Shown: one piece after another, positions 8,108 through 63,789 of the stretch
Position numbering within the stretch: the stretch's first letter is position 1
Layout of the letters: every line of letters starts with the position of its first letter
DNA from: a virus
DNA length: 64,000 nt
Reading direction: 5' to 3' (one strand)
IMG/VR virus record: IMGVR_UViG_3300037264_003623
Location: 1-64,000 of that record
The notes under the pieces: model-generated
Seen by the model: the letters and a program-made list of their open reading frames with translations, nothing else
Told to the model about the DNA's origin: nothing
Databases searched by the model: none
Made by a program: the position numbers and the translations under genes

Positions 8108-8455
8108 ATGGCCGGAAGAAAAGGGCCAACCATGAACCTCGTCCGAAGGCTCGGGGAGGTGAACCCCGAAAGGCTCGCGGGCGAGGTCGCAAGTCTCCGT
8201 AAGGAGAGCGAGAACCTTCGCCTCGCCCTTGGTGTGAAGGTCGCGACCTACGTTAGGACGATCAACCTGGGGAAGGGTGATGTCCTCGTCGTTCGGCCCC
8301 CGAAGGGGATTTCCATCAGGCCGGAGGCGTGGGTCGCTGTCCTGGAGCACGTCTCGAAGCTGATGAAGGATCGGCTCGGGTGGGAGGGTCCGATCCTGTT
8401 CGAGGGGAACATGGAGATCAGCAAGCAGGTCGGAGGCTCTGATGGTCAGCATTGA
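8108..8455 (+). CDS. Hypothetical protein
   Basis: Typical codon usage; overlaps dnaB start. Confidence 0.6.
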   Translation: MAGRKGPTMNLVRRLGEVNPERLAGEVASLRKESENLRLALGVKVATYVRTINLGKGDVLVVRPPKGISIRPEAWVAVLEHVSKLMKDRLGWEGPILFEGNMEISKQVGGSDGQH

Positions 8456-37783: not shown

Positions 37784-38335
37784 ATGAAGAAGTGCCCGGT
37801 GTGTGGCAAGGACAAGAGCGAGTTCGAGATGCGGCCCCTGGTGAATGTCGAGGAGCTGGCGGTCGGGGACGCAATGAGCGACCAGGACTCGAAGCAGGAC
37901 GTGGGCGGGGCGAAGGTCCACGTCGTCTGCCGGTCGTGCTGGCTCGCCCTCCTGGATGGCAAGTCCAAGGCCGAGATCATGGAGCTCCTGGAGACGATCT
38001 GCGGCATCCTCTTCGAGGTCGCGAGGGAGAGGCGGGAGAAGGGTCTCTGGGCCGAGCCCGCCGTCCTGATCGAGAAGATGAGTACGTTTCCCCATCCCAT
38101 CATGCCCATGCTCGCCGTAAGCCCGTGCTGCCCCACGCTCATTCCTTTTCCTGGATCGACCGGGGATATCCAGATTTCCGACGGGACCCACCGAGGCAAC
38201 TTCCTCATCAATAACATCTCGGAATCGGGGGTGGGAAACAACATGTCCATCAGGAATCTCGCCGCCCAGTGGGGCGATATGATGTTCGAGTCAGACGACG
38301 GGGAGGCGTGGTCCTCCAACAAGAAGTCGAGGTAG
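37784..38335 (+). CDS. Zn-finger hypothetical protein
   Basis: CPVCG...CRSC; SD GGAGG. Confidence 0.7.
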   Translation: MKKCPVCGKDKSEFEMRPLVNVEELAVGDAMSDQDSKQDVGGAKVHVVCRSCWLALLDGKSKAEIMELLETICGILFEVARERREKGLWAEPAVLIEKMSTFPHPIMPMLAVSPCCPTLIPFPGSTGDIQISDGTHRGNFLINNISESGVGNNMSIRNLAAQWGDMMFESDDGEAWSSNKKSR

Positions 38336-38337
38336 GC

Positions 38338-39693
38338 ATGGCCGAGCCGAAGGAATGGAAACCTGTTCTCAGGGAGGCGTTCCACCCGCCGCACGCGCAG
38401 GACGAGCTGGCCCTGGTGGAGCTGGGCGTCCCCTTCCACGAGCAGCGGTCGTTCGAGAAGCAGGTCCCGAGCTGGCGCTGGCCCCTGTGGGGGGTCGCCA
38501 TCGAGGAGATCGTCGGGAAGGAAGGCTCTGGGTGGAAGAGGGGGAAGACGATCGGGCTGTACGGGGAGAGGCCCCCCGTGTTCGCCCCGGTCGATGTGGC
38601 CCTGGGCAAGACCAGGATGGTCTCCGGGGAGCTGGCTGGGGTCGTCTCCTACAAGGACGCTAAGGGGAACCCGCAGAAGTTCGTCATGGTCGTGGAGCCT
38701 CAGTTCAAGACTGTCAAGGTCGCCCTCATGGGGAAGGCGGACCAGACGCAAGACGCGGAGCGCCTGTTCTCCGAGATTGCGAAGTGGACCGCGGAGCACA
38801 ACTTCTACAAGGGACAGAAGATCGACGCGACGGGGAAGTTCCTCGACCTTTCCGACATCGAGGAGGCCGACCTGATCTTGGCCGAGAAGACCAAGCACGA
38901 CATCTTCTTCAACGTCAAGACCATGGTGGAGAGGTGGAGCGACTACGCGCAGTACGGCATTGCCGCGAAGCGCGGGGTCATCTTGAGCGGGCCACCTGGG
39001 TGCGGTAAGTCCATGTCCCTCAAGGTGTTGGCGAAATCCCTTCCCTGCACATTCGTGTGGGCGACGCCTATGCACGTCATGAAGGCGGATGGGTTCGTCG
39101 ACATCTACGACTTGGCGAGGGAGCTCGCGCCCACGGTCGTGCTCCTGGAGGACGTGGACGTGTACGGGCTGGATCGGCGGCTCGCCGGGACCAACCCGCT
39201 CCTGGGGGACCTCCTCAACTCGATGGATGGGCTGGTCGAGAATAAGGGTGTGGTGACCATCGCGTCGAGCAACTATGCCGAGGTTCTCGACACCGCCCTC
39301 ACCAACAGACCGGGTCGGTTCGATGTGCGGGTCGCCGTCGGATATCCCGGGCCTAAGGAGGCCGAGGCCATCATTCGCAGGTCGCTGGAGAAGCGGAAGG
39401 TCGCCTTCAAGGGCGATCCAGGGGAGATCGTCAAGCTCTCGGGTGCCCTCTCCAACGTCTCGGCCAGCGGAGCGCACGTCGCCGAGGCGGTGAACTTCGC
39501 TATGATGCTGGCTGTCGAACGTGGGCGCGGGCGCGGCGGTCGCTTGTCCGTGGATGCGACGGACCTCCAGGATGCGGTCCAGCGGATCGTGGCGGATCTC
39601 GGCCAGAACGACGCGACCGAGAAGTCCATCGTCCAGGAGAACGTCCTGAAGTGGGGCAACTGGGCTAAGGACTTGTGGAAGTCGAGGAGGTGA
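38338..39693 (+). CDS. Classic AAA+ ATPase
   Basis: GPPGCGKS, LLEDVD, LLNSMDG, LDTAL.NRPGRFD. Confidence 0.92.
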   Translation: MAEPKEWKPVLREAFHPPHAQDELALVELGVPFHEQRSFEKQVPSWRWPLWGVAIEEIVGKEGSGWKRGKTIGLYGERPPVFAPVDVALGKTRMVSGELAGVVSYKDAKGNPQKFVMVVEPQFKTVKVALMGKADQTQDAERLFSEIAKWTAEHNFYKGQKIDATGKFLDLSDIEEADLILAEKTKHDIFFNVKTMVERWSDYAQYGIAAKRGVILSGPPGCGKSMSLKVLAKSLPCTFVWATPMHVMKADGFVDIYDLARELAPTVVLLEDVDVYGLDRRLAGTNPLLGDLLNSMDGLVENKGVVTIASSNYAEVLDTALTNRPGRFDVRVAVGYPGPKEAEAIIRRSLEKRKVAFKGDPGEIVKLSGALSNVSASGAHVAEAVNFAMMLAVERGRGRGGRLSVDATDLQDAVQRIVADLGQNDATEKSIVQENVLKWGNWAKDLWKSRR

Positions 39694-39696
39694 TCC

Positions 39697-40089
39697 GTGA
39701 AGGGCCGAGTGAATGGCCGGGACAGGAAGGTTCTGCAATTCAGGCAGAATGCGGGCGAGGGGCAACCGAAGGTGGTCGTGATGCCCTCTCCCGAAGCGGT
39801 CAGGCGGGTGGCGCAGGAAGCGGCGCGCCATGACGTCGGCGAGGTCGCCAGGGTCCTCAGCGAGAAGATTTCCATGATCTTCGCCGAGGAGGTCAAGTCG
39901 GCGGTGCTCCTCAACGCCCTGATCGAGATCCTCATCCAGAAGGGTGTCTTCACCAAGGATGAGTACAAGGAGCTGGTCAAGAAGCGCGAGGAAGAGACGC
40001 AGGACCGGTACGTCAGGGCGAAGGAGGCGATCAGAAGGGGCGAGGACCCCGGCCCCATCGTCCTGGGCAAGGAAGGCGAGGGGGGGTAG
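39697..40089 (+). CDS. Hypothetical protein
   Basis: SD AGGAGGTG. Confidence 0.7.
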   Translation: MKGRVNGRDRKVLQFRQNAGEGQPKVVVMPSPEAVRRVAQEAARHDVGEVARVLSEKISMIFAEEVKSAVLLNALIEILIQKGVFTKDEYKELVKKREEETQDRYVRAKEAIRRGEDPGPIVLGKEGEGG

Positions 40090-40818
40090 ATGCACGAGCT
40101 CTCTTCGATCTGGACGAAGGCCTTCGACAGGGCGTCTGGGGATTCGAGGAGGCTCGTCGTCAGGAGCGAGTGCGACATCCCTGTCCCGCCCGAGATCGTG
40201 GGGTGGTGGCAGGATGTGGCCGAGGATCGGGACGTCTCGGGCACCCTTCGCGTGCTGGAGTTCAATCCCAGCCTCCCGTTCGGCGAGGCCATCCAGGACG
40301 ACTCGGCGGTCGTCTACATCTCCAGGGATGAGAGGGTCATCCCCCACGTCTTCCTGAGGTCCAACGGGGCCCACGAGATACGGCACCTGGAGCAGAGGAT
40401 GAGGCCGTGGCTCGTGGACTGGTTCGTCCGCGAGAAGCTGATCCAGAACTTGCTCAAGGCGGACGGCCTGAAGAACCCCGACGCGGACTTCTTCAACCGG
40501 CACCACGAGGAGCTCCCCGACGAGGCCGACGCCTTCATGTTCGAGAAGGAGGTCGCAGGGTTCGACGCGAGACCCTTCGCGGCGGCGGTCAGGAAGGCGC
40601 TCAACGGTGGGGACGTGTGGCCCAACCCGTCGAAGTACGTCGTTCAGGTGACACGCCCCCTCGGCAGGTCGAAGACGCTGTTCGATCGGGCGCGGTCCCC
40701 GAATCAGATGGAGAAGCAGGCCAGCGACTCCTGCCCCAACGCGCCGGACGGGAAGCACGCATTCCTCTTCAACAGCCCGCAGTGCCTCAGATGCAGGAAG
40801 GTCTTCGACAGGAGGTAG
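40090..40818 (+). CDS. Putative HExxH zinc metallopeptidase-like protein
   Basis: AHEIRHLEQ with downstream E.DA. Confidence 0.6.
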   Translation: MHELSSIWTKAFDRASGDSRRLVVRSECDIPVPPEIVGWWQDVAEDRDVSGTLRVLEFNPSLPFGEAIQDDSAVVYISRDERVIPHVFLRSNGAHEIRHLEQRMRPWLVDWFVREKLIQNLLKADGLKNPDADFFNRHHEELPDEADAFMFEKEVAGFDARPFAAAVRKALNGGDVWPNPSKYVVQVTRPLGRSKTLFDRARSPNQMEKQASDSCPNAPDGKHAFLFNSPQCLRCRKVFDRR

Positions 40819-40820
40819 CA

Positions 40821-41228
40821 GTGCAGACGAACCGCAGCCAGAGGTGGGGCAAGAACATTTCCATCTCCCTCTCGAAGGCGGACAAGCCGGACCTCAAGAA
40901 GGCGGTCATGGACTTCCTGGAGAAGAACCCGGAGCCGAGCGACGACGCATGGCACGCATGGGCGGAGAGGGAGGGGTTCGACGTCCACCAGGCGGAGGCG
41001 GTCGCCTACGCCCTGGCTGGGCGGCTCGTCAAATTCCTTCGGGGAGGGCGGTCCAAGGGAGTACGACCGACAGGGGCGTCCGATGAGGAGGTCGTACTGG
41101 GCGTCGAGATCGAGTCCGAGCATGTCGACGACGAGGAGATCCAGAGGAAGATCGCCTACGACCACCTGGAGGAGTTCGAGAACTACAACACCGAGCTTCG
41201 CGACATGGAGGAGAGGCTGAACGGGTAG
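40821..41228 (+). CDS. DUF5661-like protein with shared leader
   Basis: GVEIESEH...KIAYDHLEE...Y..L..ME; GTG after AGGAGG. Confidence 0.7.
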   Translation: MQTNRSQRWGKNISISLSKADKPDLKKAVMDFLEKNPEPSDDAWHAWAEREGFDVHQAEAVAYALAGRLVKFLRGGRSKGVRPTGASDEEVVLGVEIESEHVDDEEIQRKIAYDHLEEFENYNTELRDMEERLNG

Positions 41229-41303
41229 GGGATTATCTTCCTGATCGGTTCGGATATGATGAGGGAAACCGGCGCGGGCCGGTCCTTTTGCTTTGGAGGC
41301 AAA

Positions 41304-42305
41304 ATGAACACCAAGGAAAGCAAGGTATGGGGGGCCAAGCTCGCGTCGGTCCTGGGCACCACGATCGAGAAAGGAACGCGAGAGGGTAAGAGGGAGGAGA
41401 CTCTATGCCTTGAGGAAGGCGAGGAATTGCTGACTCGCGGAGGCCCAGGTTCAGGCCATTTCGGGCATGCCGGGCGTCCCGGCGCGGTGGGTGGCAGCGT
41501 CGAGGGAGGGGTGCAGGCCGGTCGGGCCGAGGCTCCCGAGTCCCCCGAGCACTTCAAGTGGTCGGGCAAGTTCGAGATGAAGCGCAAGGCGGGGCCGGGC
41601 GTGAACCTCTCGATCATCAAGGACCCCCGCCAGCGCCACTTCGAGGTCCACGGGGCGGCTGACGCCAAGGGCAAGCCGAAGCGAGGGAAGGCCGTCATCC
41701 GGACCAACGGAGACACCATCGAGCTCGATCACGATGAGCTCCACGACCTTCGGTCGAAGATGCGCTACGTCCAGATGACGAATACCCGCGACATCCAGGA
41801 GATCGCGGGGAGGGAGATCGTCAGGGGAAACACGATCGAGGTCGAGCACAAGGGGAAGACGGTGAGGATCCCCGTGAACGAGGACACCGTCCGCGAGATT
41901 GATCGCGCCTCCCATGCCTCGAAGAAGGAGGGGTTCTCCTTCACAGGCGAGAGCAAGCGGGAGATCCACAGGGCATACGACAAGATGTCGCGGGGGAACC
42001 CGATCCACATCGTGAAGGACATGGGGTTCTCCAAGGCCGGGAAGTTCGCGGCGTTCCGGGCCTATGTGGACGGGCCGAAGCGGTCGAAGAAGGACGTGGA
42101 CCGCTTGGTCGAGAGCAAGCGCGGCGTGGTGTCGAAGTCGACGGTCCAGGCCCTTCGACGGACGGCGAAGCAGTTCTTCGAGACTAGGAAGTCGGGATGG
42201 GATGCGAGGGACGGGCGATCCGCCACGGACGCCATGAAGCACTACCAGAAGGCGGCGGCCCTGTTCTCCCGGATCGAGAAGTCGGGCGAGCGGAAGAGGA
42301 GGTGA
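41304..42305 (+). CDS. Basic protein with leader and GGPGSG tag (putative virion cargo)
   Basis: GGPGSGHFGHAGRPGAVGGS motif; SD GGAGG. Confidence 0.7.
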   Translation: MNTKESKVWGAKLASVLGTTIEKGTREGKREETLCLEEGEELLTRGGPGSGHFGHAGRPGAVGGSVEGGVQAGRAEAPESPEHFKWSGKFEMKRKAGPGVNLSIIKDPRQRHFEVHGAADAKGKPKRGKAVIRTNGDTIELDHDELHDLRSKMRYVQMTNTRDIQEIAGREIVRGNTIEVEHKGKTVRIPVNEDTVREIDRASHASKKEGFSFTGESKREIHRAYDKMSRGNPIHIVKDMGFSKAGKFAAFRAYVDGPKRSKKDVDRLVESKRGVVSKSTVQALRRTAKQFFETRKSGWDARDGRSATDAMKHYQKAAALFSRIEKSGERKRR

Positions 42306-42308
42306 AAA

Positions 42309-42599
42309 ATGGAGATCCCGAGCAATCTCAAGCCCTTCATCACACAGGAACAGTGGAGCCGCCTGCGGGTCGGAAATCTCTCCCCCGAGGACCAGGCGAC
42401 CGTGCTCGACATCCTCAACGGCGGGTTCGAGGGGATGGACCCCGAGAAGATCGACCCTGAGGACGTCGAGGAGACGGTGGATTTCGTCGAGGGGATCGTG
42501 GACGACCTCCTGGAGGAGGTCCCCGACCTTGACGAGGATGAGCTGGTTGCCGCGGAACAGACATCCGACGCCATCCTCGAAGAGATGGCCGAGGAGTGA
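42309..42599 (+). CDS. Small, very acidic protein
   Basis: D/E-rich; SD GGAGGTG. Confidence 0.7.
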   Translation: MEIPSNLKPFITQEQWSRLRVGNLSPEDQATVLDILNGGFEGMDPEKIDPEDVEETVDFVEGIVDDLLEEVPDLDEDELVAAEQTSDAILEEMAEE

Positions 42600-42655
42600 A
42601 GCACCGCCGCCTGAAGGCGGCTCTCGCCACATTTTTGTAGACGGAGGGACTCTCG

Positions 42656-43060
42656 ATGGGGGAGCAGGCGGACGGGCGATTCTACGGCCCTCACCTGACG
42701 ATCGACGCCTACGGGTGCTCCAAGGAGAGGCTCGCGAGCCTGGAGGCCGCGTTCGACTTCCTGGACCGGATGCCGGGGGTCATCGGGATGGAGAAGATCA
42801 CCAAGCCTTACGTGTTCCGGCATCTCGCGCCGCCGGACCCGGAGTGGGGAATCACGGGGGTGGTCATCATCGCCACGAGTCATGTGAGTTTTCATTCTTA
42901 TCCCCAGATGGGGGTGTGCTTCGTGGACGTCTTCTCATGCAGGCCGTTCGATACGCGGAGGGCCGTGGATTTCTTCCAGGAGACGTTCGGAGGGGACGAG
43001 GTCGAGATCCGCGAGGTGAAGCGCGGTCTCCATTTCCACGAGACAGGAGGCGCTCGGTGA
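42656..43060 (+). CDS. speD: Pyruvoyl-dependent S-adenosylmethionine decarboxylase-family proenzyme
   Basis: G.HL.ID.YGC, GITGVVII.TSH.S.H.YP, VDVFSC..FD. Confidence 0.85.
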   Translation: MGEQADGRFYGPHLTIDAYGCSKERLASLEAAFDFLDRMPGVIGMEKITKPYVFRHLAPPDPEWGITGVVIIATSHVSFHSYPQMGVCFVDVFSCRPFDTRRAVDFFQETFGGDEVEIREVKRGLHFHETGGAR

Positions 43061-43323
43061 GCGTAAAAAAGGTTCCGTGCCCGGTGTGCAACAAGGACAT
43101 GGAGTACGCGGGGCAGGAGGGAGGGCACAAGGAGCGGGCCAAGAGCGGCGAGGTCATCGAAACCGTCCATGTGTTCTTCATGTGCGAGAAGTGCGACACG
43201 TCGGTTCGCCTTCGCTTCCGGAAGGACGGCCAGACGGGGGACCTCTGGCGGGAGATCCAGAGGCGGAAAGCGGTAGGCAAGGTGGTCACCGACTTCGGTG
43301 GGAAGTTCGGAGAGATGGGATGA
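43057..43323 (+). CDS. Zn-ribbon protein
   Basis: CPVC...CEKC; coupled at both ends. Confidence 0.65.
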   Translation: MSVKKVPCPVCNKDMEYAGQEGGHKERAKSGEVIETVHVFFMCEKCDTSVRLRFRKDGQTGDLWREIQRRKAVGKVVTDFGGKFGEMG

Positions 43324-45161
43324 GAACGCAGGATAGCAAGCGGTTCGCAGGCCTTCTCCTGGGCTCCCTGAACAAGGCGGAGTTCGAGGAGGAGGCGCAC
43401 CCGAGGGACGCCACGGGGAAGTTTGCCCCGAAGGAGGAATCCGCCCCTGCCGAGTCCGAGCACAGGAACCTTCGGTCCCTCGCCAGGGAGGCGTCCGCCC
43501 TGAGGGCCATCGGGGACGAAGGGGCAGCCAGGAAGATCGAGCAGAAGCTCCAGGCCGCCAGGGGGAAGGCAGAGGAGGGCCGTAGGGAGAGGATGCCGAA
43601 GCCGCTCGCTCCCCCTCGCCCCCAGCCAGCGCCCGCACCGAGGCCGCCGAGGGCGGCACCCGTTCCCCCTCCCCCGCCTCCATCTCCACCGAAACCGGCG
43701 AGATCTCCTCTTCCAAGGGCCGGGCCCGTCGATGTGGCCCATGAGCAGATAAGGATCGACAACGCGAGGGCGAAGGGGGATCTCTTCCGCGCCATGCGGA
43801 GGAGGATGGACGCGATCAAGGATCCGGCGAAGATGATGAACTTCGCTGATGCCCTGGACAGGAACAAGTACGATCAACTGGCCCAGGAGGCCAGGAACAA
43901 GCTCTTCGGCATGGGGTATGACAGGGATGGGAAGCCGGTCGATTTCGGGGCGAAGCCTCCTGCACCGTCTCCCGAGCCTCCTCCCTCGCCCGCGCCGCAG
44001 AGGCCCGCTCTGGCCGTCGCGGAACCTAAGCAACTGAGGCACGAGAAGGAGGCCGTCGGCGAGCTGAAGCGCAGGGCGTCCGGCTTCGACGATCTGGAGT
44101 CCAGGGTCAGGGAGAGGGTTCTGAGGCTCAAGAACCAGCAGAATAATCCACAGAAGGTTCGGAGCTTCGCCGATGAGCTGGAGGCACAGGGGGAGAAGTA
44201 TCTTGCGGAGGAGGCCAGGAACGCCCTCTGGGAGATGGGGTACAAGCCCGACGGCAGTCCGGTGCCGGAGGGCGAGAGGTTCGCGAGGCCCGCGCACGGT
44301 GTCCCGAGGCCAGCCGCGCCGCCTCCTCCTTCTCCTCTTCCTGAGGCCAGGGGTGCGACCGGCGTGAAGCACCCGATGTCGTCCGTCCACGACAGCGGGG
44401 CCGCCATGAAGGATGTCCAGTTCAATTTCCACGACAAGATTCACAAGGCGAAGGAGATGGGTGGCGGGATCGGGGAGACGCACAGGATCGAATTCAAGGA
44501 TGGGAACAAGGCCATCTACAAGCCGACGGCGGGGTCGGGGCTCCAGCATTACCACGATATGGGCCGTGATGTTAGGCGGACGATCGACTGGCAGATTCCG
44601 GAGGGGCAGCGGGAGGCCGTCGCCTACGCGATCAGCCGGGAGGCGGGTTTCGACATCGTGCCTCATGTCGAGCTGGTGAACTACCCGGTCGGGCGTCCGG
44701 GCGGGGGACACGCGATGGCTTGGGTGGAAGGTCAGGAGGCGGCCCACGCGGGGCAAAAGCTGAGGGATGATGCGAACGCCAATCATCCAGACCTGCACCG
44801 GATTGTCGCTCTCGACTTCATCATGGGCAACACCGACAGGCACTCCAGGAACTTCATGGGTGGCAAGGATGGACGATGGTACGCGATCGACAACGGGCTC
44901 GCCGGGTGCAAGGACATGGACATGTCGGAGTACAGGTCCGGACCCCATAGTATGTTGGAGGGGAGTCGGATACCTGACGAGGTCAAGGCCGAGATTCGAG
45001 CGATCAAGCCCGATGTGGTCAAAGGTGCCATGCAGAAGGCGGGATTCAAGCCGGTGGACATCAAGGGTGCCCTCGCCAGAATCGACTATTTGTCGAAGGC
45101 TCGAACATGGAAGAGCACCTGGGATGACAGTAGTGCAGCCAAGAGGCTCTACGAGGAGTAG
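43320..45161 (+). CDS. Leader/HPR-tagged protein with C-terminal HipA/PI3-4-kinase-like domain
   Basis: AIYKP, REAVAY, IVP, DFIMGNTDRH..N, AIDNG; internal repeat FAD.L......LA.EARN.L..MGY..DG.PV. Confidence 0.85.
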   Translation: MRTQDSKRFAGLLLGSLNKAEFEEEAHPRDATGKFAPKEESAPAESEHRNLRSLAREASALRAIGDEGAARKIEQKLQAARGKAEEGRRERMPKPLAPPRPQPAPAPRPPRAAPVPPPPPPSPPKPARSPLPRAGPVDVAHEQIRIDNARAKGDLFRAMRRRMDAIKDPAKMMNFADALDRNKYDQLAQEARNKLFGMGYDRDGKPVDFGAKPPAPSPEPPPSPAPQRPALAVAEPKQLRHEKEAVGELKRRASGFDDLESRVRERVLRLKNQQNNPQKVRSFADELEAQGEKYLAEEARNALWEMGYKPDGSPVPEGERFARPAHGVPRPAAPPPPSPLPEARGATGVKHPMSSVHDSGAAMKDVQFNFHDKIHKAKEMGGGIGETHRIEFKDGNKAIYKPTAGSGLQHYHDMGRDVRRTIDWQIPEGQREAVAYAISREAGFDIVPHVELVNYPVGRPGGGHAMAWVEGQEAAHAGQKLRDDANANHPDLHRIVALDFIMGNTDRHSRNFMGGKDGRWYAIDNGLAGCKDMDMSEYRSGPHSMLEGSRIPDEVKAEIRAIKPDVVKGAMQKAGFKPVDIKGALARIDYLSKARTWKSTWDDSSAAKRLYEE

Positions 45162-45181
45162 AGCGGGTCAGGAGGAGAAAC

Positions 45182-45499
45182 ATGCTCATCGGGATGAGGG
45201 TTCGGAAGGACACGGATAAGGGCGAGGCTACCGTGTTCGAGTACCGGATGGGCCAGAATGGCAGGGTGGCCCTTACGGTCGGGGATCCGAACGAGATCGT
45301 CTCGGAGATCACGCTGGGGTCGGGGGACAACACGATGATCGAGGACATGGGCGGGTCATACGGGGTGAGGATGCCCCCGTTCGCGAAGGGGGCCGAGAAG
45401 ACATACACCCCCGCCGACGGGGTGAGCTTCATCCTTGCGCTCCTCGTCCAGTTCAGCAGGAACAACGGCTACTCGTGGGCGGAGCCGATCCTCTCATGA
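45182..45499 (+). CDS. Small kinase-partner protein (putative immunity)
   Basis: Paralog of 46686..47006; SD AGGAG. Confidence 0.75.
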   Translation: MLIGMRVRKDTDKGEATVFEYRMGQNGRVALTVGDPNEIVSEITLGSGDNTMIEDMGGSYGVRMPPFAKGAEKTYTPADGVSFILALLVQFSRNNGYSWAEPILS

Positions 45500-46689
45500 A
45501 GACGTTCTACTCCAGGAAGTTCGCGAGGTTCATGGGTTCCATCCTGGCGAAGGCCACATGGGACCCGGATCTCCACCCGAGGAGCGAGGGCGGGAAGTTC
45601 TCCAGGACCGAGGGAGTCTCTGAGGAGAGGCGGGTCGCGGAGAGGCTCATGGGGACCTCGGCGGATCAGCTTGAGGCGGAGGCACGGGAGACCGAGCGGG
45701 AGGCTTCCGCGCTGAGGGCGATGGGGAAGGGCGAGAAGGCCGCGATGGCCGACGCCGTGGCGAGGGACCTGATGGAGAGGGCGAAACTGGCGAGGGAGCC
45801 GGTCAGGGTGTTCAGGCCGGGATCGGAGCCGAGGAGGCCCGCCCCGCCGATAGATCCCACGAGGCATCCGCAGGAGTCCGTGAGGGGGAGGGCAGAGACG
45901 ATGAGAAAAGCCTCGGGGAAGCCTGAGGCTTTCATCATGAACACGCGCAGGGTCATGGGGGGCAAGGGAGAGTGCCACCGAGTCCTCTTCGACGACGGGA
46001 CCAGGGCCGCCTACAAGCCGACGGCGGGGTCCGTCCTTGTGCAGATGGAGAAGCAGGGCCGGGGTGAGGAGATCACGATCGACCCGAAGATCCCGGAATC
46101 GAAGCGCGAACGGGCCGTCTTCGATCTCAGCGCGATGGCCGGGTTCGACGTGGTGCCCCCGGTCGAGCTCGTGGACTACGATGGGGTGGGGTCCCCCGGG
46201 GGCGGGCACGCTATGGCATGGGTGGACGGGCAGGAGGCCATTGACATCGAGGACCAGTACTACAAGGACATCTCCGCGAACCATCCCGACCTTCACCGGA
46301 TTGCGGCGCTCGACTTCATCACGGGCAATGTAGACCGGCACCAGGGGAACTTCATGAGGGGGAAGGACGGGCGCTGGTACGCGATCGACAATGGCCTCTG
46401 CTTCACCAGGGACATGGAGCTCGGGATGTCGTGGTCCGATGTCATGCGGAAGCTCATGATGCACGTCACGCCGCCGGAGGTGCGGGCGGAGATCGCCTCG
46501 ATCGACAAGGACGCTATGGGCGGAATCATGAAGGAGGCGGGCTTCGACGCCGTGGACATCAAGGCCGCGCAGACGAGGCTGGATGTGCTCAAGGCCTTGG
46601 GCGGGTGGGGGACGGAGGGGCAAATGTACGGGGCGGCCGAGGACGCCTACTTCCAGGCGGGTGGGCGCAGGCGGCCAGGGAGGGAATGA
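45496..46689 (+). CDS. Second leader/HPR-tagged HipA/PI3-4-kinase-like protein
   Basis: AAYKP, RERAVF, DFITGNVDRH..N, AIDNG. Confidence 0.85.
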   Translation: MKTFYSRKFARFMGSILAKATWDPDLHPRSEGGKFSRTEGVSEERRVAERLMGTSADQLEAEARETEREASALRAMGKGEKAAMADAVARDLMERAKLAREPVRVFRPGSEPRRPAPPIDPTRHPQESVRGRAETMRKASGKPEAFIMNTRRVMGGKGECHRVLFDDGTRAAYKPTAGSVLVQMEKQGRGEEITIDPKIPESKRERAVFDLSAMAGFDVVPPVELVDYDGVGSPGGGHAMAWVDGQEAIDIEDQYYKDISANHPDLHRIAALDFITGNVDRHQGNFMRGKDGRWYAIDNGLCFTRDMELGMSWSDVMRKLMMHVTPPEVRAEIASIDKDAMGGIMKEAGFDAVDIKAAQTRLDVLKALGGWGTEGQMYGAAEDAYFQAGGRRRPGRE

Positions 46690-47006
46690 TCGTGCTCATT
46701 GGGGTAAGATGGGTGAGGGACGTGGACACCGGGCGGGATGTGTCGTTCGAGTACAGGCTGGACCCGAGGACCGGCAAGGCTGTCCAGGTCGCGGGGCCCG
46801 CGAGGGCGAACGACGAGGTGATCCTCTCCCCGTGGGATGGGGTGATGGGCCCCGAGATCGCCAAGTATCACGGGATGGATTTCAAGCCGGTTCCGAAGGG
46901 CGGGAGGAGGCTGACCCCGGACGACGGGGTTGACTTCCTTCTCGCCGTTCTCGTCAAGTACGCGAGGAACACCGGCTACGGCAGGGTCGAGCCGATCAGC
47001 CGATAG
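46686..47006 (+). CDS. Small kinase-partner protein (putative immunity)
   Basis: LIG.R..D.D.G...FEYR...TP.DGV.F.LA.LV...RN.GY...EPI shared with 45182..45499. Confidence 0.75.
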   Translation: MIVLIGVRWVRDVDTGRDVSFEYRLDPRTGKAVQVAGPARANDEVILSPWDGVMGPEIAKYHGMDFKPVPKGGRRLTPDDGVDFLLAVLVKYARNTGYGRVEPISR

Positions 47007-47015
47007 GAGGATCAG

Positions 47016-48341
47016 ATGGAGACGCCGTCGAGCAGGGCCACGAGCAATCTGATTTCCAAGTCCCTGGAGACCGTCCAGGAGACGCCGGGCCAGGTGTCCT
47101 CGAAGGAGATGCAGGACCTCTCCGCGATGATCCTGAAGGCGATGGACGACCCCGCCTTCGTCGAGACGGTCTGCCCGAGCGGCGGCTGCCCCGAGCTCCG
47201 CGGCCTCCTCCTGGAGGTGGTCGAGCGGGCCAAGGAGGAGGACGACTCCCCCGAGGTCAAGGCGTGCGTCTCGAAGAAGATCCCGATCCTCATCGAAGAG
47301 GGATATCCGAGAGCCCAAAGTGTCGCGATCGCGTTCTCGGTTTGCCGCAAGGACCCGTCCGTCGCCGACAAGGCGGTGAAGGTCGAGGGGACGCCCCGCT
47401 ACATGACCGAGGCGGAGCTCCGCGCCATGAAGCCGAAGAAGCCGGAGACCGACACGGACACGGAGATCGAGTCCGCGATCGGGTGCGATCTCGACGCGCT
47501 CAACAGGACGACTTCCGTCCTGATTTCCAAGGCCGGGACCTCTGATGGCGCGAAGCTGGGGTGGGAGACCCGTAGGGGCGGAGCGCCCACTGATGAACCC
47601 AAGGCTGGGATGCCCTCCAGGCAGGAGTGGGATGGGTTCCAATCGAACGCTGATGCGGTATTCGATGTCAGCAGGGGCGCGGTCAAAGAGGTTGAACGGA
47701 TCGAGGAGAGGGCCATAGAAGCGGAAGAGGAGGGTAGATCCCGCCTACATCCGTTCGGCGTGAAAGAGCCGACGACGCCGAAGGGCGTGGAGCAGGCTCT
47801 GAACAAGCTGGCGGATGTCGCGCCGAAGGCCGCTGACCTCGCGGCGAGACTGAAAGGCGTCCCTGGGGTGGACGAGGGGAAGAGGAAGGCCGCTGAGGAC
47901 AAGATGCGGGGATGGAAAGGTGGGGTGCCCCGTGAGGAGATGCAGGATTTCAACGACATCGTGTCCGACATCTACACGATGGTAGACAGCGCCAGGGCGG
48001 ACCATGACCCGAAGTACATGGAGGGGTCCGAGCCCGTGACGCGGCCTTCCGTGGGCAAGGAGCTCGTTCTGAACCTGGGCGTGCAGAAGCGGTTCTTGTC
48101 CCTGCAAGACCTTGAGGGATTCAAGCCGACGAAACCGGAGGACGTCCGCCCGCCACGGGAGAGCACCAGGCACGAGGGCGAGCCGGAAGACTCGGGGCTT
48201 CGTCGCCTCATCATGCCGGGATGGGCCCGAAAGGGCGGCCAGGTTGCGCCTCCCGGTGACGTCCCGAAGGATAGGATCAGGGGCGATGGCTTGACCGAGA
48301 TGCTCATGCCGAGCAGGAAAGAGGACGAGCCCAAGGAATAG
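47016..48341 (+). CDS. Multi-module tagged protein (putative virion cargo)
   Basis: EGYP.AQ.VAIA.S module; ISK-AGTSDGAKLGWETRR. Confidence 0.75.
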   Translation: METPSSRATSNLISKSLETVQETPGQVSSKEMQDLSAMILKAMDDPAFVETVCPSGGCPELRGLLLEVVERAKEEDDSPEVKACVSKKIPILIEEGYPRAQSVAIAFSVCRKDPSVADKAVKVEGTPRYMTEAELRAMKPKKPETDTDTEIESAIGCDLDALNRTTSVLISKAGTSDGAKLGWETRRGGAPTDEPKAGMPSRQEWDGFQSNADAVFDVSRGAVKEVERIEERAIEAEEEGRSRLHPFGVKEPTTPKGVEQALNKLADVAPKAADLAARLKGVPGVDEGKRKAAEDKMRGWKGGVPREEMQDFNDIVSDIYTMVDSARADHDPKYMEGSEPVTRPSVGKELVLNLGVQKRFLSLQDLEGFKPTKPEDVRPPRESTRHEGEPEDSGLRRLIMPGWARKGGQVAPPGDVPKDRIRGDGLTEMLMPSRKEDEPKE

Positions 48342-48351
48342 CGCACACGAT

Positions 48352-49059
48352 GTGCGGAAACCGGAGGAATACCCCGTGAAAGAGCGCAAGGACAAGGACC
48401 TGGGCTCGATTTTCAACGCCAAGTCCCTCCTCGACGGGCAGGGGACCCCACAGCGGGACACCGCCCAGAGCAGGAAGGTCGCCCTGGACTTCGCCGGGAT
48501 GCTCGCGAAGGATGGCACGAGCGAGGGTGCGAAGAAGGGCTGGGAAACTCGACGCGGCGCGGCAGCCCTGTCCGAGGGCCCCAAGGAGTTCAGAGACTTC
48601 ATGGTAGGAGCCATCGCCCAGCGCGACACCCCTGATGCCAAGGCGACGAAGGAGATGGCGGAGAATCTCAAGGACAGTGATGTTCCCCTGAAGGATGCTT
48701 TTACCGCCGCTCAGAAACGGGTTGACCAGGCCGACGCCCTCGCCGGGGAGACCCTCAAGCGGTTCGGCTCCGCCCTTTCCCAGTATCACGTCGACAACAT
48801 CAATCGCGAGCGGGAGACGATCAAGCGGGCCATGGATGTCGCCGACAGGCATGTCCGGGAGAACAGCCGGGGGTATGCCGCCGACGCCATCAGCAACGCC
48901 GTCGAGGGCGCGGACCTCATGTCGATCTGGGCATCTTCCGCGGTCGGAGAAGTCTGGAAAAAGCAGACCCGGGAGAGGGGGGTGGGGAAGTCCGGCACTT
49001 CCGAGGGGGTCCCGAAGACCCTCAAGGGGTCGTTCCTGACCGAAGGCGACACACAATAG
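48352..49059 (+). CDS. Tagged protein (putative virion cargo)
   Basis: LAK-DGTSEGAKKGWETRR; start codon uncertain. Confidence 0.7.
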   Translation: MRKPEEYPVKERKDKDLGSIFNAKSLLDGQGTPQRDTAQSRKVALDFAGMLAKDGTSEGAKKGWETRRGAAALSEGPKEFRDFMVGAIAQRDTPDAKATKEMAENLKDSDVPLKDAFTAAQKRVDQADALAGETLKRFGSALSQYHVDNINRERETIKRAMDVADRHVRENSRGYAADAISNAVEGADLMSIWASSAVGEVWKKQTRERGVGKSGTSEGVPKTLKGSFLTEGDTQ

Positions 49060-49084: not shown

Positions 49085-49112
49085 TTGGCGAATACGCTAA
49101 AGGGTGTATAAT
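49085..49112 (+). promoter_or_regulatory. Promoter TTGGCG-N16-TATAAT, leaderless-type
   Basis: ATG 49119 lies 7 nt after the -10 box. Confidence 0.65.
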
Positions 49113-49118
49113 AGGATC

Positions 49119-50681
49119 ATGGAAGTGGGCGCGATCTATGACGTCCAGAAGGAAGGCACCTCCGAGGGTGCCTACCGCGGGTGGGAGACTAGGAGAGACG
49201 GCCCGAGGGCCGCCCCTTTCGTCGAAGCGCGGAGGAAGATTGGGAGCATGGTGGAGGAGGCCAACGAGGAGTTCAAGAGGGAGGTTGCTCTTCACCTGAA
49301 GGGTATCCCGAGCGACTACGCGGGGATGACACGCAGGGACAGGGAGAACAGAGCCGAAGGCCTGAGGCTCGTTCGGGATGCAGTCGAGAGACTGAGGGGG
49401 GCCGAGGTCGCGGAGGCGGACAGGGGTACGCTCGCCAGGATGATCGACTACGCGGAGCGGGAAGCCCCCATCATCAGCGAGCGCGACAAGGGGGACCGGA
49501 GGTGGCACGAGGAGTTCGACGCCTTCCTCGCCGAAGCCGAGGAGGTCGCGTCCAGGGCGAAGGAGCCCGAGGGAATGGAAAAGGGCGAGGTCGTCGTCTG
49601 GGAGCCGAGCAGGCATCCCCGGGGGGAGGGGGGCCGGTTCGCCCAGGCCGAGGCCAGGGATCCCGAGGAGAGGCGGAGGCTGGTCGAGTCCGCGGCGTCC
49701 GAGGCCGCCAGGCGGGTTATCGACAGCATGGGCCGAGACGCGAACAGGGTGATCTACGATACGGTGAGCGAGTTCGGCCTGTCCGGCAACGACGCGGCCG
49801 AGGCGTTCCAGATGGCCGACCGGAGGCTGCGGAAGGAGCGGGAGCTGGATGTGCTCCGCAAGGCCACTGGGGACCTGCTCTCGAAGGTCGAGTTCGAGGA
49901 GGACGAGCACCCGAGGGACCCCGCAGGCAGGTTCGCCTCCAGGGGAGAAGGGGTCGCGCCGAGGGCCGATGCCGTCTCGAAGGAGGAGATCGACAGGGTG
50001 TTCGACGGCAGGGCGAAGAACCCGAGCACGCCCGATGAGCAGAGCCGCCTGCACCAGGAGATCGAGGCCTCGGCGGACAGGGCGAGTCGGATGTCGCAGG
50101 AGGACCACATCTCCGGGGTGCCCGAGAGGATGACCAAGGTATCCGAGAGGGCGGAGGCCGTCGTGATGTCCCTCGGCAGGAGGATCATGGAGGAGGGCGC
50201 AGCTAACTGGAAGGAGTTCGTCTTCGCGGTGGAGAACGGGAGCGGGGACGTGGTGGGGATGAGGGAGGGCGACAAGGAATCAGCGTCGTGCGTCGGGATC
50301 TACGGGGGGATGGACAGGGATAGGGGATACACGTTCGTCCACAACCATCCCACAAGCAACTCCTTCTCGGACGTGGACGTGATCATATTCACTAGGATCC
50401 CCCAGTTTACGAGGGCGGTGGTGGTCAGCGGGATGTGGACGTACATTCTGGAGAAGCCGCCGGGGTGGAACTTCAGGAAGGTTTGGGGCGTGGACGATGC
50501 CAGGGCGGAGTACCTCCGCCAGAGCGACGTGCTGACGCCCAAGTACAAGCCCCCCGCCAACCCGGACGGGACGAGGGACGACGCCAGGGACAGGGTCGCG
50601 TGGCGGGAGCAGGGCCATGAGGTGATATCCAACCTGGCGAAGCTCTACGGGCTGTCCTACAGGAGGGAGAAGAGGGCATGA
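49119..50681 (+). CDS. Three-tag polyprotein with C-terminal JAB/MPN-like domain
   Basis: One GTSEGA tag, two HPR tags; E...FVHNHP.S.SFS..D. Confidence 0.75.
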   Translation: MEVGAIYDVQKEGTSEGAYRGWETRRDGPRAAPFVEARRKIGSMVEEANEEFKREVALHLKGIPSDYAGMTRRDRENRAEGLRLVRDAVERLRGAEVAEADRGTLARMIDYAEREAPIISERDKGDRRWHEEFDAFLAEAEEVASRAKEPEGMEKGEVVVWEPSRHPRGEGGRFAQAEARDPEERRRLVESAASEAARRVIDSMGRDANRVIYDTVSEFGLSGNDAAEAFQMADRRLRKERELDVLRKATGDLLSKVEFEEDEHPRDPAGRFASRGEGVAPRADAVSKEEIDRVFDGRAKNPSTPDEQSRLHQEIEASADRASRMSQEDHISGVPERMTKVSERAEAVVMSLGRRIMEEGAANWKEFVFAVENGSGDVVGMREGDKESASCVGIYGGMDRDRGYTFVHNHPTSNSFSDVDVIIFTRIPQFTRAVVVSGMWTYILEKPPGWNFRKVWGVDDARAEYLRQSDVLTPKYKPPANPDGTRDDARDRVAWREQGHEVISNLAKLYGLSYRREKRA

Positions 50682-51787
50682 AGGATCCGAAGGTGCCGAT
50701 CACCGAGTGGGACATCGACGACCGCGGCAACGTGCCTCCCTACGGGAACGCCGTCGCGAAGGAGGGCACTTCTGAAGGGGCGAAGCTGGGATGGGAAACG
50801 AGGCGGGAGGGCGGACAGGCGGAGGAGAAGAAGCCGGACGCCTCATCCTTCGAGACGCCCCCCGAGAATTGGCAGCAAAGTCTGCCGTACCAGCATCGGC
50901 TGAACTTGGGTGCATGGACGGAGTGGCTCACCAACCTGAGGATGTCCCATGTCTACCGCCAGGGGGGCGAGGCCAAGCCCTACCGGCCAGAGTTCGCCGA
51001 CGTCGCGGCTCGGCGCGAGGTCGGGCGGTGGCTCGATCGCAACGACGATAAGATGATCTACCACATCTCGCGGAAGGTGGACATCTCGCATGGGCCGAGG
51101 GACGAGAAGATCGGCGAGGCGGTCGGGCTGGTTCAGGAGATCGTTCGCATGGCCCAGGCCGAGGCGCGGAGGGAGGCCGAGACGCAGGCCAAGAAGAACC
51201 CTCTGTCCGGCGTCCTGTTCGGGAAGGCCAGGGTCGTGGGCGGATTCCCACTCACGCAGGAGGACGCGCTCGCGAAGGAAGGCACGTCCGAAGGCGCCAA
51301 GAAAGGGTGGGAGACCAGGCGCGAGGGCGGCGGGGCGCTATCCGAAGAGGAGCGCAAGAGGGCCATTCGATCCCTTGAGGTGCGGGGCGCGGCGGACAGG
51401 GGCGACGTGTCCGTGAAGATCGTCCCCCTTCTTACCGGGGAGGGGTTCGGGGTGGAGACCACGGTGGCTGGCGACAGGAGGAACCCGAGGGAGCCCGCCA
51501 TGACGATGGAGGAGGCACGCAGGTTCGCCCTGGAGCAGCTCCAGAGCCCCCGCCCGACCCAGACCCCCGAGATGAAGCCGAAGCCCGAGGCGGAGGAGAA
51601 GAAGCCCTCTCCGACGCCCGTGAGGCCCTACAGGAACCCCGGAGACTTGGCCGCCGACTACAAGCGGCAAGGTATCCCGAAGCAACGTGCCTGGGATCAG
51701 TTCATCATCGACACTGTCCTCTCCCCGAAGTTCCGGTCGGAGCAGGTGGACGCGAGGGAGTTCTTCCAGGCCTACGATAGGGCGTAG
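50678..51787 (+). CDS. Two-tag polyprotein (putative virion cargo)
   Basis: Two AK-EGTSEGAK.GWETRREGG copies. Confidence 0.75.
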   Translation: MKDPKVPITEWDIDDRGNVPPYGNAVAKEGTSEGAKLGWETRREGGQAEEKKPDASSFETPPENWQQSLPYQHRLNLGAWTEWLTNLRMSHVYRQGGEAKPYRPEFADVAARREVGRWLDRNDDKMIYHISRKVDISHGPRDEKIGEAVGLVQEIVRMAQAEARREAETQAKKNPLSGVLFGKARVVGGFPLTQEDALAKEGTSEGAKKGWETRREGGGALSEEERKRAIRSLEVRGAADRGDVSVKIVPLLTGEGFGVETTVAGDRRNPREPAMTMEEARRFALEQLQSPRPTQTPEMKPKPEAEEKKPSPTPVRPYRNPGDLAADYKRQGIPKQRAWDQFIIDTVLSPKFRSEQVDAREFFQAYDRA

Positions 51788-62460: not shown

Positions 62461-62545
62461 GGGCAGGTCGGATAGCGGCAAGTCCACCTGGCTGTAAACC
62501 AGGCGCCTCAGGCTTACGTGAGTTCGAGTCTCACCCTGCCCACCA
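62461..62545 (+). tRNA. tRNA-Tyr(GTA)
   Basis: GGGCAGG/CCTGCCC, CCTGG-CTGTAAA-CCAGG, long variable arm, CCA. Confidence 0.92.
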
Positions 62546-62620
62546 CGCGCTGTGGCCCAGTCTGGCTAGGGCGCCTGCTTCGGGAGCAGGAAAACGCCGG
62601 TTCGATTCCGGCCAGCGCGA
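62546..62620 (+). tRNA. tRNA-Pro(CGG)
   Basis: CGCGCTG/CAGCGCG, CCTGC-TTCGGGA-GCAGG. Confidence 0.92.
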
Positions 62621-62621
62621 T

Positions 62622-62698
62622 GCTGGGATAGCTCAGACGGTAGTAGCACTGGACTGAAAATCCAGGTGTCGCCGGTTCGATTCCGGCTCCCAGCGCCA
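62622..62698 (+). tRNA. tRNA-Phe(GAA)
   Basis: GCTGGGA/TCCCAGC, CTGGA-CTGAAAA-TCCAG, CCA. Confidence 0.9.
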
Positions 62699-62786
62699 GC
62701 GGAAGTGGCGGAACGGCTAACGCACCCGGTTCAAGGCCGGGCGGCTCGAAAGGGCCTTGCGGGTTCGAGTCCCGCCTTCCGCACCA
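62699..62786 (+). tRNA. tRNA-Leu(CAA)
   Basis: GCGGAAG/CTTCCGC, CCCGG-TTCAAGG-CCGGG, long variable arm. Confidence 0.92.
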
Positions 62787-62870
62787 GGGCGAGTGGTGGA
62801 GTTGGCAGACACCTGTGTTTGAGGGGCACAGGCCCGAAAGGGCATGCGGGTTCGACCCCCGCCTCGCCCA
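62787..62870 (+). tRNA. tRNA-Leu(GAG)
   Basis: GGGCGAG/CTCGCCC, TGTGT-TTGAGGG-GCACA. Confidence 0.88.
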
Positions 62871-62872
62871 TT

Positions 62873-62906
62873 GCCGGGGTGGTGAAGTTGGCAGACGCGC
62901 TGGCAT
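62873..62906 (+). tRNA. 5' half of a split tRNA-Leu
   Basis: GCCGGGG acceptor strand, D arm, CTGGC anticodon strand; partner at 63584-63638. Confidence 0.8.
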
Positions 62907-62990
62907 GTTGGAGTGGCGTAATGGCTAACGCACCGGACTCAGGATCCGGGTCCGAAAGGACACCTGTGGGTTCGACTCCCACCTCCGACA
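62907..62990 (+). tRNA. tRNA-Leu(CAG), nested inside the split tRNA
   Basis: GTTGGAG/CTCCGAC, CCGGA-CTCAGGA-TCCGG. Confidence 0.9.
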
Positions 62991-63053
62991 TTAAAGACTT
63001 GGCAGACTCATAGGAACGGGTTATAATATGTCGTCCAAGTAGGAGGACGACAG

Positions 63054-63587
63054 ATGAGAAGGGAAGAGGATCTGCGAAGGGTGGTTTCCGAGTGCGTGTC
63101 TTTTGCCCAGGTTCTTCGACGTTTGGGATTGAAGCAGGCTGGCGGAAGTCAGAGCGAGTTGAAGAAGAGGGTGGAGGCGCTCGGGATAAGCACAAGTCAT
63201 TTCCTTGGCAGGAGGACGAACTCGGGGGCGCACCATCGCGGCGGGTGCCCCAAGAAGGCTTGCTCGGAGGTATTGGTTCGTAGCGTGAGGCGGCATCCCT
63301 ACCTTCTTCGCCGGGCCTTGCTCGAATCGGGGAGGGAGTACCGCTGCCAAGGAGACGGTTGCCCGGTAAGGGATGAATGGCTTGGGAAGAAGATCGTCTT
63401 GCAGGTGGATCACGTTGATGGAGACAGGAGCAACAATAGGGCTTCCAACCTTCGATTCCTTTGCCCCAACTGTCATTCGCAGACAGGCAACTGGGGAAAG
63501 AACGAAGGGGGAACGGATCTGACCACTAACGCGAGGCAGTGCCAGAACTGGAGACGGAAACGCCGGGAAGCATCGGGCACGGTTTGA
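63054..63587 (+). CDS. HNH endonuclease
   Basis: LQVDHVDGDRSNNRASNLRFLCPNCHSQT; own promoter TTGGCA-N17-TATAAT (62999-63027) and SD AGGAGG. Confidence 0.92.
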   Translation: MRREEDLRRVVSECVSFAQVLRRLGLKQAGGSQSELKKRVEALGISTSHFLGRRTNSGAHHRGGCPKKACSEVLVRSVRRHPYLLRRALLESGREYRCQGDGCPVRDEWLGKKIVLQVDHVDGDRSNNRASNLRFLCPNCHSQTGNWGKNEGGTDLTTNARQCQNWRRKRREASGTV

Positions 63588-63638
63588 GGAGCCAGTGCCC
63601 GAAAGGGCGTGCGAGTTCGACCCTCGCCCCCGGCACCA
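63584..63638 (+). tRNA. 3' half of the split tRNA-Leu(GAG)
   Basis: TTGAGGA loop, GCCAG, variable arm GCCC-GAAA-GGGC, T arm, CCCCGGC-ACCA. Confidence 0.8.
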
Positions 63639-63639
63639 T

Positions 63640-63713
63640 GTGGTCGTGGTCCAGCGGTAGGGCGCTTGGTTGTGCCCCAAGAGATGGCGGTTCGACTCCG
63701 CCCGATCACCCCA
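63640..63713 (+). tRNA. tRNA-His(GTG)
   Basis: GTGGTCG/CGATCAC, C73, CTTGG-TTGTGCC-CCAAG, CCA. Confidence 0.85.
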
Positions 63714-63789
63714 GCCCTCGTAGCTCAGTTGGTAGAGCGGCGCTTTCGTAAAGCGCAGGCCGCAGGTCCGATGCCTGCCGGGGGCTCCA
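63714..63789 (+). tRNA. tRNA-Thr(CGT)
   Basis: GCCCTCG/CGGGGGC, GCGCT-TTCGTAA-AGCGC, atypical T loop TCCGATG, CCA. Confidence 0.82.

Follow-up and report, generated by a model that had tools for sequence, protein, structure and literature searches.

The window analysed here is the first 64,000 nucleotides (64 kb) of the IMG/VR virus record IMGVR_UViG_3300037264_003623, a phage contig of 109,083 bp with 62.6% G+C, 160 predicted proteins and almost every gene on the + strand. Between 40.8 and 51.8 kb it carries a cluster of genes, several of whose products begin with a similar short peptide (hereafter the leader) that ends in a hydrophobic residue, any residue and a lysine. Products of the cluster also contain conserved stretches of three kinds, the junction tags: tag A (GTSEGAKxGWETRR), tag B (W/F-x4-HPRDxxG[RK]F) and tag C (GGPGSGHFGHAGRPGxVGGS). 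The original prediction had described the leader as a 19-residue capsid-targeting propeptide shared by unrelated proteins and cleaved after L-x-K, and had drawn no link between it and the tags, which we consider to be part of the same module, always following the predicted cut site. The leaders and tags found in the cluster are listed below; positions are those of the window, and genes are named in the text by their first position.

40821-40877, + strand: leader 1, 19 residues, GTG start, ends SLSK, on a DUF5661 protein (gene 40821-41228)
41304-41372, + strand: leader 2, 23 residues (helix core plus spacer), ends TIEK, on a protein without assigned function (gene 41304-42305)
41439-41498, + strand: tag C (GGPGSGHFGHAGRPGAVGGS) in the 41304 protein, with LTR directly before it
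43320-43376, + strand: leader 3, 19 residues, ends SLNK, on a PI4K-like kinase (gene 43320-45161)
43383-43424, + strand: tag B (F-x4-HPRDxxGKF) in the 43320 protein
45496-45552, + strand: leader 4, 19 residues, ends ILAK, on a PI4K-like kinase (gene 45496-46689)
45559-45600, + strand: tag B in the 45496 protein
47016-47060, + strand: leader 5, a short variant of 15 residues, ends LISK (gene 47016-48341), member of the best N-terminal clique described below
47523-47576, + strand: internal ISK followed by tag A (GTSDGAKLGWETRR) in the 47016 protein
48454-48510, + strand: internal leader-like 19-mer, ends MLAK, within the open reading frame 48352-49059, with tag A directly after it (48514-48555)
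49104-50681, + strand: multi-segment protein punctuated by tags (VQK and tag A at 49143-49196, MEK...tag B at 49599-49640, LSK...tag B at 49893-49934)
50340-50378: JAB/MPN-like (RadC-like) motif H-x-H...S-x-x-D, here H-N-H-P...S-x-x-D, assigned by inspection in the C-terminal part of the 49104 protein
50678-51787, + strand: protein in which VAK/LAK with tag A forms two junctions (50753-50806 and 51269-51322)

All six peptides that had been pointed out (those of 40821, 41304, 43320, 45496 and 47016 and the internal one at 48454) were present where they had been placed, and the four 19-mers among them aligned without gaps as described, sharing T3, S6, basic residues at 7-8, W/F/V at 9, G/A at 10, L17 and K19. 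The claim that the carriers are unrelated could be kept for four families; it did not hold for the kinases 43320 and 45496, two of the four carriers of a 19-mer, which are paralogues of each other and of a seventh carrier outside the window, gene 95079, whose product begins MQTPESARMRLF (common PI4K-like domain, E of 1e-22 to 1e-74 in pairwise BLAST). When the mature parts were compared by pairwise BLAST, the products of 40821, 41304 and 47016 showed no relation to the kinases or to each other, short tags aside. In most carriers only one payload can be recognised; the 40821 product, for instance, matches PF18905 over residues 93-132. Genes 49104 and 50678 encode multi-segment proteins in which the JAB-like domain, assigned by its motif, is the sole recognisable one, the C-terminal part of the 49104 protein having no Pfam match. 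None of ten cluster proteins matched the MuF family (PF04233).

The resemblance between leaders was compared with chance by aligning residues 2-19 of all 160 predicted proteins without gaps (BLOSUM62) in a greedy search for the best clique, with 300 shuffles as control. The best cliques, whose members were not chosen beforehand, consisted of 40821, 41304, 43320, 45496 and 47016, then 95079, and scored 110, 162 and 179 for four, five and six members, where shuffled N-termini scored 51 ± 8, 56 ± 13 and 52 ± 19 (maxima of 83, 104 and 150). Individual leader pairs scored no higher than the best random pairs, which places the signal in the set rather than in any single pair. This last result, together with the fact that three of the carriers are paralogues, speaks for a functionless relic of gene duplication or cassette recombination, or a chance resemblance. 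Against such an origin stand a clique lying 6-8 standard deviations over the shuffles and the purifying selection seen in three unrelated families down to ~35-40% identity, codons changing synonymously, and we give it very little credence. At the nucleotide level the leaders are only 44-54% identical, and the same residues are often written with different codons, so the constraint acts on the peptide and not on the DNA; a shared RNA or DNA element was rejected on account of these synonymous differences. A hidden Markov model profile built from foreign kinase leaders placed the DUF5661 leader 4th among 674 proteins, with an E of 0.66 from a profile too short to reach significance.

The leader is conserved among metagenomic homologues of its carriers. 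Across 17 kinase sequences, reaching down to ~35% identity, no member departs from L17 or K19, and at least 90% keep T3 and S6, a degree of conservation equal to that of the catalytic D-R-H-x-x-N residues in the same alignment, while the residue that follows K19 varies (A, D, Q, V, G). Seven homologues of the DUF5661 protein retain Q-T-x-x-S-K-[RK]-W-G...L-x-K. The ~26 homologues of the 41304 protein begin with M-[NKR]-T-K-x-S-x-x-[WF]...L, followed by a variable spacer and then by [VIL]-[ED]-[KR] immediately ahead of tag C, so that the tripeptide of the predicted cut site lies up to ~30 residues beyond the helix. Among 47 metagenomic leaders pooled from these three unrelated families, 45 have T3, 44 have S6, 45 have L17 and 43 have an aromatic residue at position 9, and position 13 is hydrophobic in 94% of them. 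Positions 3, 6, 9, 13, 16 and 17 fall on one face of a predicted helix (60-200 degrees of the helical wheel). The AlphaFold (AF2) model of the 45496 protein shows a lone helix at residues 4-19 (low confidence), a disordered segment at residues 19-52 that includes the tag, and a confident kinase fold from residue ~125, whose closest solved structures are type II PI4-kinases. With a lone helix followed by a disordered linker, the predicted cut site would be accessible. Cellular homologues of the kinase (~25% identity) have a membrane anchor and no leader.

Related IMG/VR loci were collected via the capsid protein; neither the 47016 protein nor the kinase alignment brought up any relatives in pattern scans of IMG/VR. 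The relative G005 (111 kb) has leaders of its own on at least five genes, for example MRIPASVQFGGVLEK, MRNFASETTSGLFAK and MSTMRELAATLVGDVLTK, the last with a variant of tag A directly after it. In a more distant relative, G002, four or five paralogues of the kinase bear another leader, M-x-G-L..L..F..V-W-K|Q. The system is thus a property of the lineage, in which the helix drifts and the hydrophobic-x-Lys end is retained. On these alignments, the leader is a conserved and modular N-terminal element, helical by prediction, that is found in unrelated protein families.

A short export signal of the Sec or Tat type was also considered, as S-[KR]-[KR]-F with a hydrophobic stretch after it has a superficial likeness to a Tat n-region. 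By inspection, however, this stretch is at most ~9 residues long and contains G and S, where Tat and Sec signals have 12 or more, and there is no A-x-A. The leader is only 19 residues long in total and is followed by a very acidic or charged sequence, one copy is internal, and the payloads are soluble-enzyme folds. Export is therefore a most improbable function for it.

The tags are tied to the same tripeptide. Each of the 12 junction tags in this genome has [LIVM]-x-K ahead of it, or R in the case of tag C: the six copies of tag A have [LIV]-x-K before them, the five copies of the tag B type have [LIVM]-x-K 3-10 residues upstream, and tag C follows L-T-R in this genome and [VIL]-[ED]-[KR] in the homologues. 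Most members of the kinase family carry tag B after the leader, and two (P0008 and P0018) carry tag A; since either tag can follow the same leader, leader and tags are modular.

Tags were also found away from the leader. In multi-domain proteins of other contigs, tag C stands at the junctions of MuF, ParB, ADP-ribosyltransferase, zeta-toxin and GNAT domains, and what precedes it there depends on the lineage (VER, RTL, RTA, IEK). Fusion of the kinase-like domain to MuF was seen in phage homologue P0021, and MuF fusions were confined to the distant homologues P0021 and P0062. When the leader with tag B was searched against phage records, the sole match was a portal extension of a Burkholderia phage at a non-significant E of 7, where reading the sequence revealed a tag-B-like stretch, QFKEDDHPRDADGKF, after the portal domain. 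Neither the leader and tag system nor its motif strings were found in the papers searched. These occurrences raise the possibility, which we advance tentatively and would not be surprised to see fail, that in many phage lineages unrelated to one another the tags (GGPGSGHFGHAGRPG, HPRDxxGRF and GTSEGAKxGWETRR) label the N-termini newly created on proteins that are loaded into the capsid and injected. Leader, site and tag might then form a readable code, with the residue before the tag tuned to the prohead protease of each phage.

The same tripeptide recurs in two proteins of the head, encoded side by side at the end of the contig:

106311-108026: protease-scaffold fusion, 571 residues, between the portal and capsid genes, present in all relatives
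108088 to contig end: start of the capsid protein, HK97 family (PF05065, E of 1.7e-5), with 37% identity to its counterpart in Streptomyces phage Yaboi and relatives of that phage

The capsid protein has a leader of 20 residues that ends in MIEK and is followed by TITTGDLL. In 28 related IMG/VR loci this capsid leader has 9-24 residues and a variable sequence, with [IVL]-E-K|[TS]-I invariant, and the capsid protein of phage Yaboi begins with MSNDEMIEK|VIRT. The gp5 sequence of HK97 reads TFNK|SLGS at its maturation site, and the mature HK97 capsid protein starts at Ser104; hence, a cut after hydrophobic-x-Lys is ordinary for such capsids.

The first 186 residues of the protease-scaffold protein end in a conserved ...LDHIA-x-TR..AANPRT.F..A-[IVM]-x-K, after which come a low-complexity, Lys/Ala/Glu-rich, scaffold-like arm and a conserved C-terminal tail. 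Neither the 571-residue protein nor its first 180 residues matched any model in Pfam (including S78 and S77) or PHROG, and sequence searches of the PDB with this protein and with the capsid fragment returned nothing. Structure was more informative. The model of the N-terminal domain (mean predicted local distance difference test, pLDDT, of 77.6) matched T4 gp21 (5jbl_A) with a Z of 12.2 and a root-mean-square deviation of 2.8 over 134 residues, followed by the protease of varicella-zoster virus (Z of 7.9) and then by those of human cytomegalovirus and Kaposi's sarcoma-associated herpesvirus; Foldseek alone gave a weak match (E of 0.07). The modelled fold settles the assignment of this domain to the T4 gp21/herpesvirus assemblin fold. 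H74, S131 and the domain-terminal K186 are invariant in 20 relatives, and the first two are the candidate catalytic pair by their HK97-like motifs (..ETH.. and ..LSIGG..). A leader-like stretch in the protease, STRESQAANPRTSFTEAISK, was rejected as a cargo leader, as it corresponds to the conserved last strand of the protease domain and only its final x-K is relevant. At the level of sequence, then, cargo leaders, protease domain (K186) and capsid leader (IEK|T/S in the 28 loci) all terminate in [LIVM]-x-K, and the residue before the cut (P1) is Lys or Arg at all predicted sites.

Two further observations concern the head proteins. The scaffold tail, R-L-x-x-V-E-K...S-G...W-G-G-x-F (L003:7800-8026; L068:11700-11963), recurs in the 'capsid maturation protease' of Yaboi (E of 0.006), while the protease domains of the two phages have no BLAST similarity; it may be through this tail that the scaffold binds the capsid. 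A 195-residue protein encoded in the head block (genome 94084-94671, L002:12084-12671) matches the 'protease' family phrog_15223 over its C-terminal 60 residues (E of 3e-8) and is a second candidate protease.

Starting from the conservation and modularity of the leader, the tripeptide common to the capsid and protease junctions and the fold of the protease, we propose with moderate confidence that the leader combines a docking helix with a prohead-protease site on cargo packaged into the capsid. It would act as a two-part address on proteins loaded into the procapsid. Residues 1-17 would form an amphipathic helix whose face (T3, S6, W/F9, L13, A16, L17) docks to an internal component of the procapsid; the probable partner is the protease-scaffold protein, through its scaffold arm, or else the capsid protein on its inner face. 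The [LIVM]-x-K/R site, 2 to ~30 residues after the helix, would be cut by the phage's own prohead serine protease, which would also process the capsid leader (IEK|T) and itself, at the junction of protease and scaffold (ISK|A). Such a cut would strip the helix and leave one of the three junction tags at the new N-terminus. The payloads (PI4K-like kinases, the DUF5661 protein, the JAB-like protein and several proteins without an assigned function) would then be injected along with the DNA. The capsid-targeting propeptide of the original prediction is partly supported by in silico lines, namely the modular leader, the shared tripeptide, the protease fold, the HK97 cut after F-N-K and the homologous kinase-like domain fused to MuF, and is modified by them: the module is better described as a helix (residues 1-17) plus a separable site than as one unit.

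Several observations weigh against this proposal. Bare [LIVM]-x-K is common (1.45 per 100 residues), it is not enriched in the scaffold (9 observed for 6.5 expected, p = 0.17), and its density in the cargo is likewise not above that given by composition, so that the information it carries resides in its position only. The x-K ahead of tag A could merely belong to the tag. In distant relatives the capsid leader matches the cargo leaders in its last three residues only, and P1 of the capsid site is Lys in every relative fetched, an invariance that precludes a covariation test. The orthologue of 95079 in one close relative has its Lys replaced (LLAN). By tblastn against phage records, the leader is absent from cultured relatives. 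Finally, the main cluster (40.8-51.8 kb) sits amid replication-type genes, ~35 kb away from the head genes.

The lack of statistical enrichment of the tripeptide would also fit a docking helix that is kept rather than removed, directed to the procapsid or to another assembly, with L-x-K serving as a binding surface or helix cap. L17 does lie on the conserved face, and in the 41304 family position 19 is often G, E or D in place of Lys, with the helix retained. Against a retained helix, the kinase family never departs from K19 but does vary the next residue; where K19 is absent, [VIL]-[ED]-[KR] is always found ahead of the tag further downstream; and hydrophobic-x-Lys also ends the capsid leader and the protease domain. 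We consider an uncleaved helix unlikely, if worth keeping in mind, and prefer the combination of docking helix and protease site.

The surroundings of the cluster suggest another reading, in which leader and tags mark a cytoplasmic process apart from the capsid, such as recognition by an AAA+ ATPase or a host protease for timed activation or degradation, or the assembly of an intracellular complex. Immediately upstream of the cluster are conserved genes (37784-40818) for a zinc-ribbon protein, an AAA+ ATPase and a protein with an HExxH motif:

38338-39693: AAA+ ATPase (PF00004)
40090-40818: HExxH protein, 242 residues, HEIRH motif at 40372

That the cluster adjoins the ATPase and the HExxH protein, that the neighbourhood of ATPase, zinc-ribbon and kinase genes is retained in G005, where the ATPase and zinc-ribbon genes adjoin the cluster as well, and that the head genes are distant all speak for such a process. 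It does not account for the recurrence of the site at the end of both capsid leader and protease domain, for the tags in MuF- and portal-fused proteins, or for the leader and tag genes within the head-gene block. Indeed, the third leader-bearing kinase paralogue (95079) and the tag-bearing genes 90518 and 92378 are located between the terminase and portal genes. A cytoplasmic role seems to us improbable, and packaging followed by cleavage remains our preferred reading.

Other genes of the cluster carry no leader or stand beside the carriers. An S-adenosylmethionine decarboxylase-like gene without leader (42656-43060, PF02675, E of 5e-26) lies in mid-cluster. Two small paralogous genes (45182-45499 and 46686-47006, encoding 105 and 106 residues, 38% identical, E of 9e-23), neither of which matched any family, follow the two kinase genes of the window, one after each, and the pairing of a kinase with a small gene is also present in G005 (103639-103971). 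The small genes may encode partners, regulators or immunity-like proteins of the kinases.

The rest of the genome has an unusually heavy load of inteins and Hint domains, many with LAGLIDADG or HNH endonucleases. Inteins interrupt the genes for a class II ribonucleotide reductase, DnaB helicase, primase, PolA and RecA, and the terminase and portal genes are also interrupted. The genome has 11 tRNA genes. A tblastn search of 50,697 phage records with the kinase, the protease-scaffold protein and tag A gave no match, and no cultured phage is close.

4091-7261, 8442-11045, 11042-13207, 15638-19090 and 22072-24477 of the window, and L002:2790-8162 and L003:3268-6333: intein-bearing genes
62461-63789 of the window: dense tRNA array (Tyr, Pro, Phe, three Leu, His, Thr), with three further tRNA genes elsewhere in the window
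84790-90162: large terminase, 1,790 residues, apparently with several intein inserts
103268-106333: portal, with an intein and an HNH domain

Phage proteins that are carried in the head and injected are first-strike weapons against host defences, and beyond T4 and the phiKZ-like phages they are rarely recognisable from sequence. If our proposal is true, leader, cut site and tag would provide a sequence rule for spotting such cargo in uncultured phages, the cargo here including three PI4K-like kinases. The capsid-targeting principle of T4 would also reach phages whose capsid is of the HK97 type and whose protease is fused to the scaffold, the charge at the cut site being the opposite one. In addition, the leader could serve as a portable tag by which foreign proteins are loaded into HK97-like capsids. 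Were the more general code to hold, repertoires of injected effectors would become predictable from sequence. This significance hinges on packaging and cleavage being established by experiment.

Among known systems, the capsid maturation of HK97 and D3, in which the gp4 protease removes the delta domain of gp5, is similar in its cut after hydrophobic-x-Lys, in its gene order (portal, protease, capsid) and in its capsid family. It differs in that the HK97 scaffold is fused to the capsid protein, where the one described here is fused to the protease, and in that Pfam protease models miss the present domain. We know of no leader-bearing cargo proteins in HK97.

For polyvalent proteins and MuF-fused effectors, transport in the virion has been proposed (Iyer et al. 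2017, PMC5512222); DarB of phage P1 has an N-terminal capsid signal (PMC9024508). The idea of proteins travelling in the head is shared with our proposal, as are the types of payload (kinase, JAB-like, peptidase-like), and the MuF-, ParB-, ADP-ribosyltransferase-, zeta-toxin- or portal-fused proteins in which tags B and C sit where domains meet have the architecture of polyvalent proteins. Unlike the one giant polypeptide of those systems, the payloads here are mostly encoded by separate genes, each with its own leader. The text of PMC5512222 contains neither 'HPR' nor 'linker' and describes no such leader.

In phage T4, according to the passages of PMC9024508 and PMC10052503 that cite Mullaney and Black 1996, a capsid-targeting sequence (CTS) is present on the internal proteins IPI-III and on Alt and is removed by the prohead protease gp21. 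The likeness lies in one short N-terminal peptide on otherwise different proteins, in an end that, judged here from sequence, is the type of site used by the prohead protease on head proteins (P3 hydrophobic, P1 charged), and in the fold of the protease (Z of 12.2 to gp21). The T4 cleavage consensus is L/I-x-E, so that P1 is Glu in T4 and predicted to be Lys or Arg here; in addition, the present phage has protease and scaffold in one protein and a conserved junction tag behind the predicted cut site. The leader consensus M-x-T-x-x-S-x-x-[WF] differs from the T4 CTS, to which it is not known to have any sequence relationship.

In the giant phages SPN3US and phiKZ, head and ejection proteins have N-terminal propeptides that are cut by gp245 or gp175 (PMC10052503, PMC7411985). 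As in the system described here, many internal head proteins thereby carry N-terminal propeptides removed at one short protease motif; this motif ends in Glu in the giant phages, which are myoviruses of another lineage. To our knowledge, their propeptides are long and do not form one shared leader. The system of this phage thus resembles both the T4 CTS and the SPN3US propeptides and is a member of neither; by analogy with the former, its leader is probably a lysine version of the T4 capsid-targeting system.

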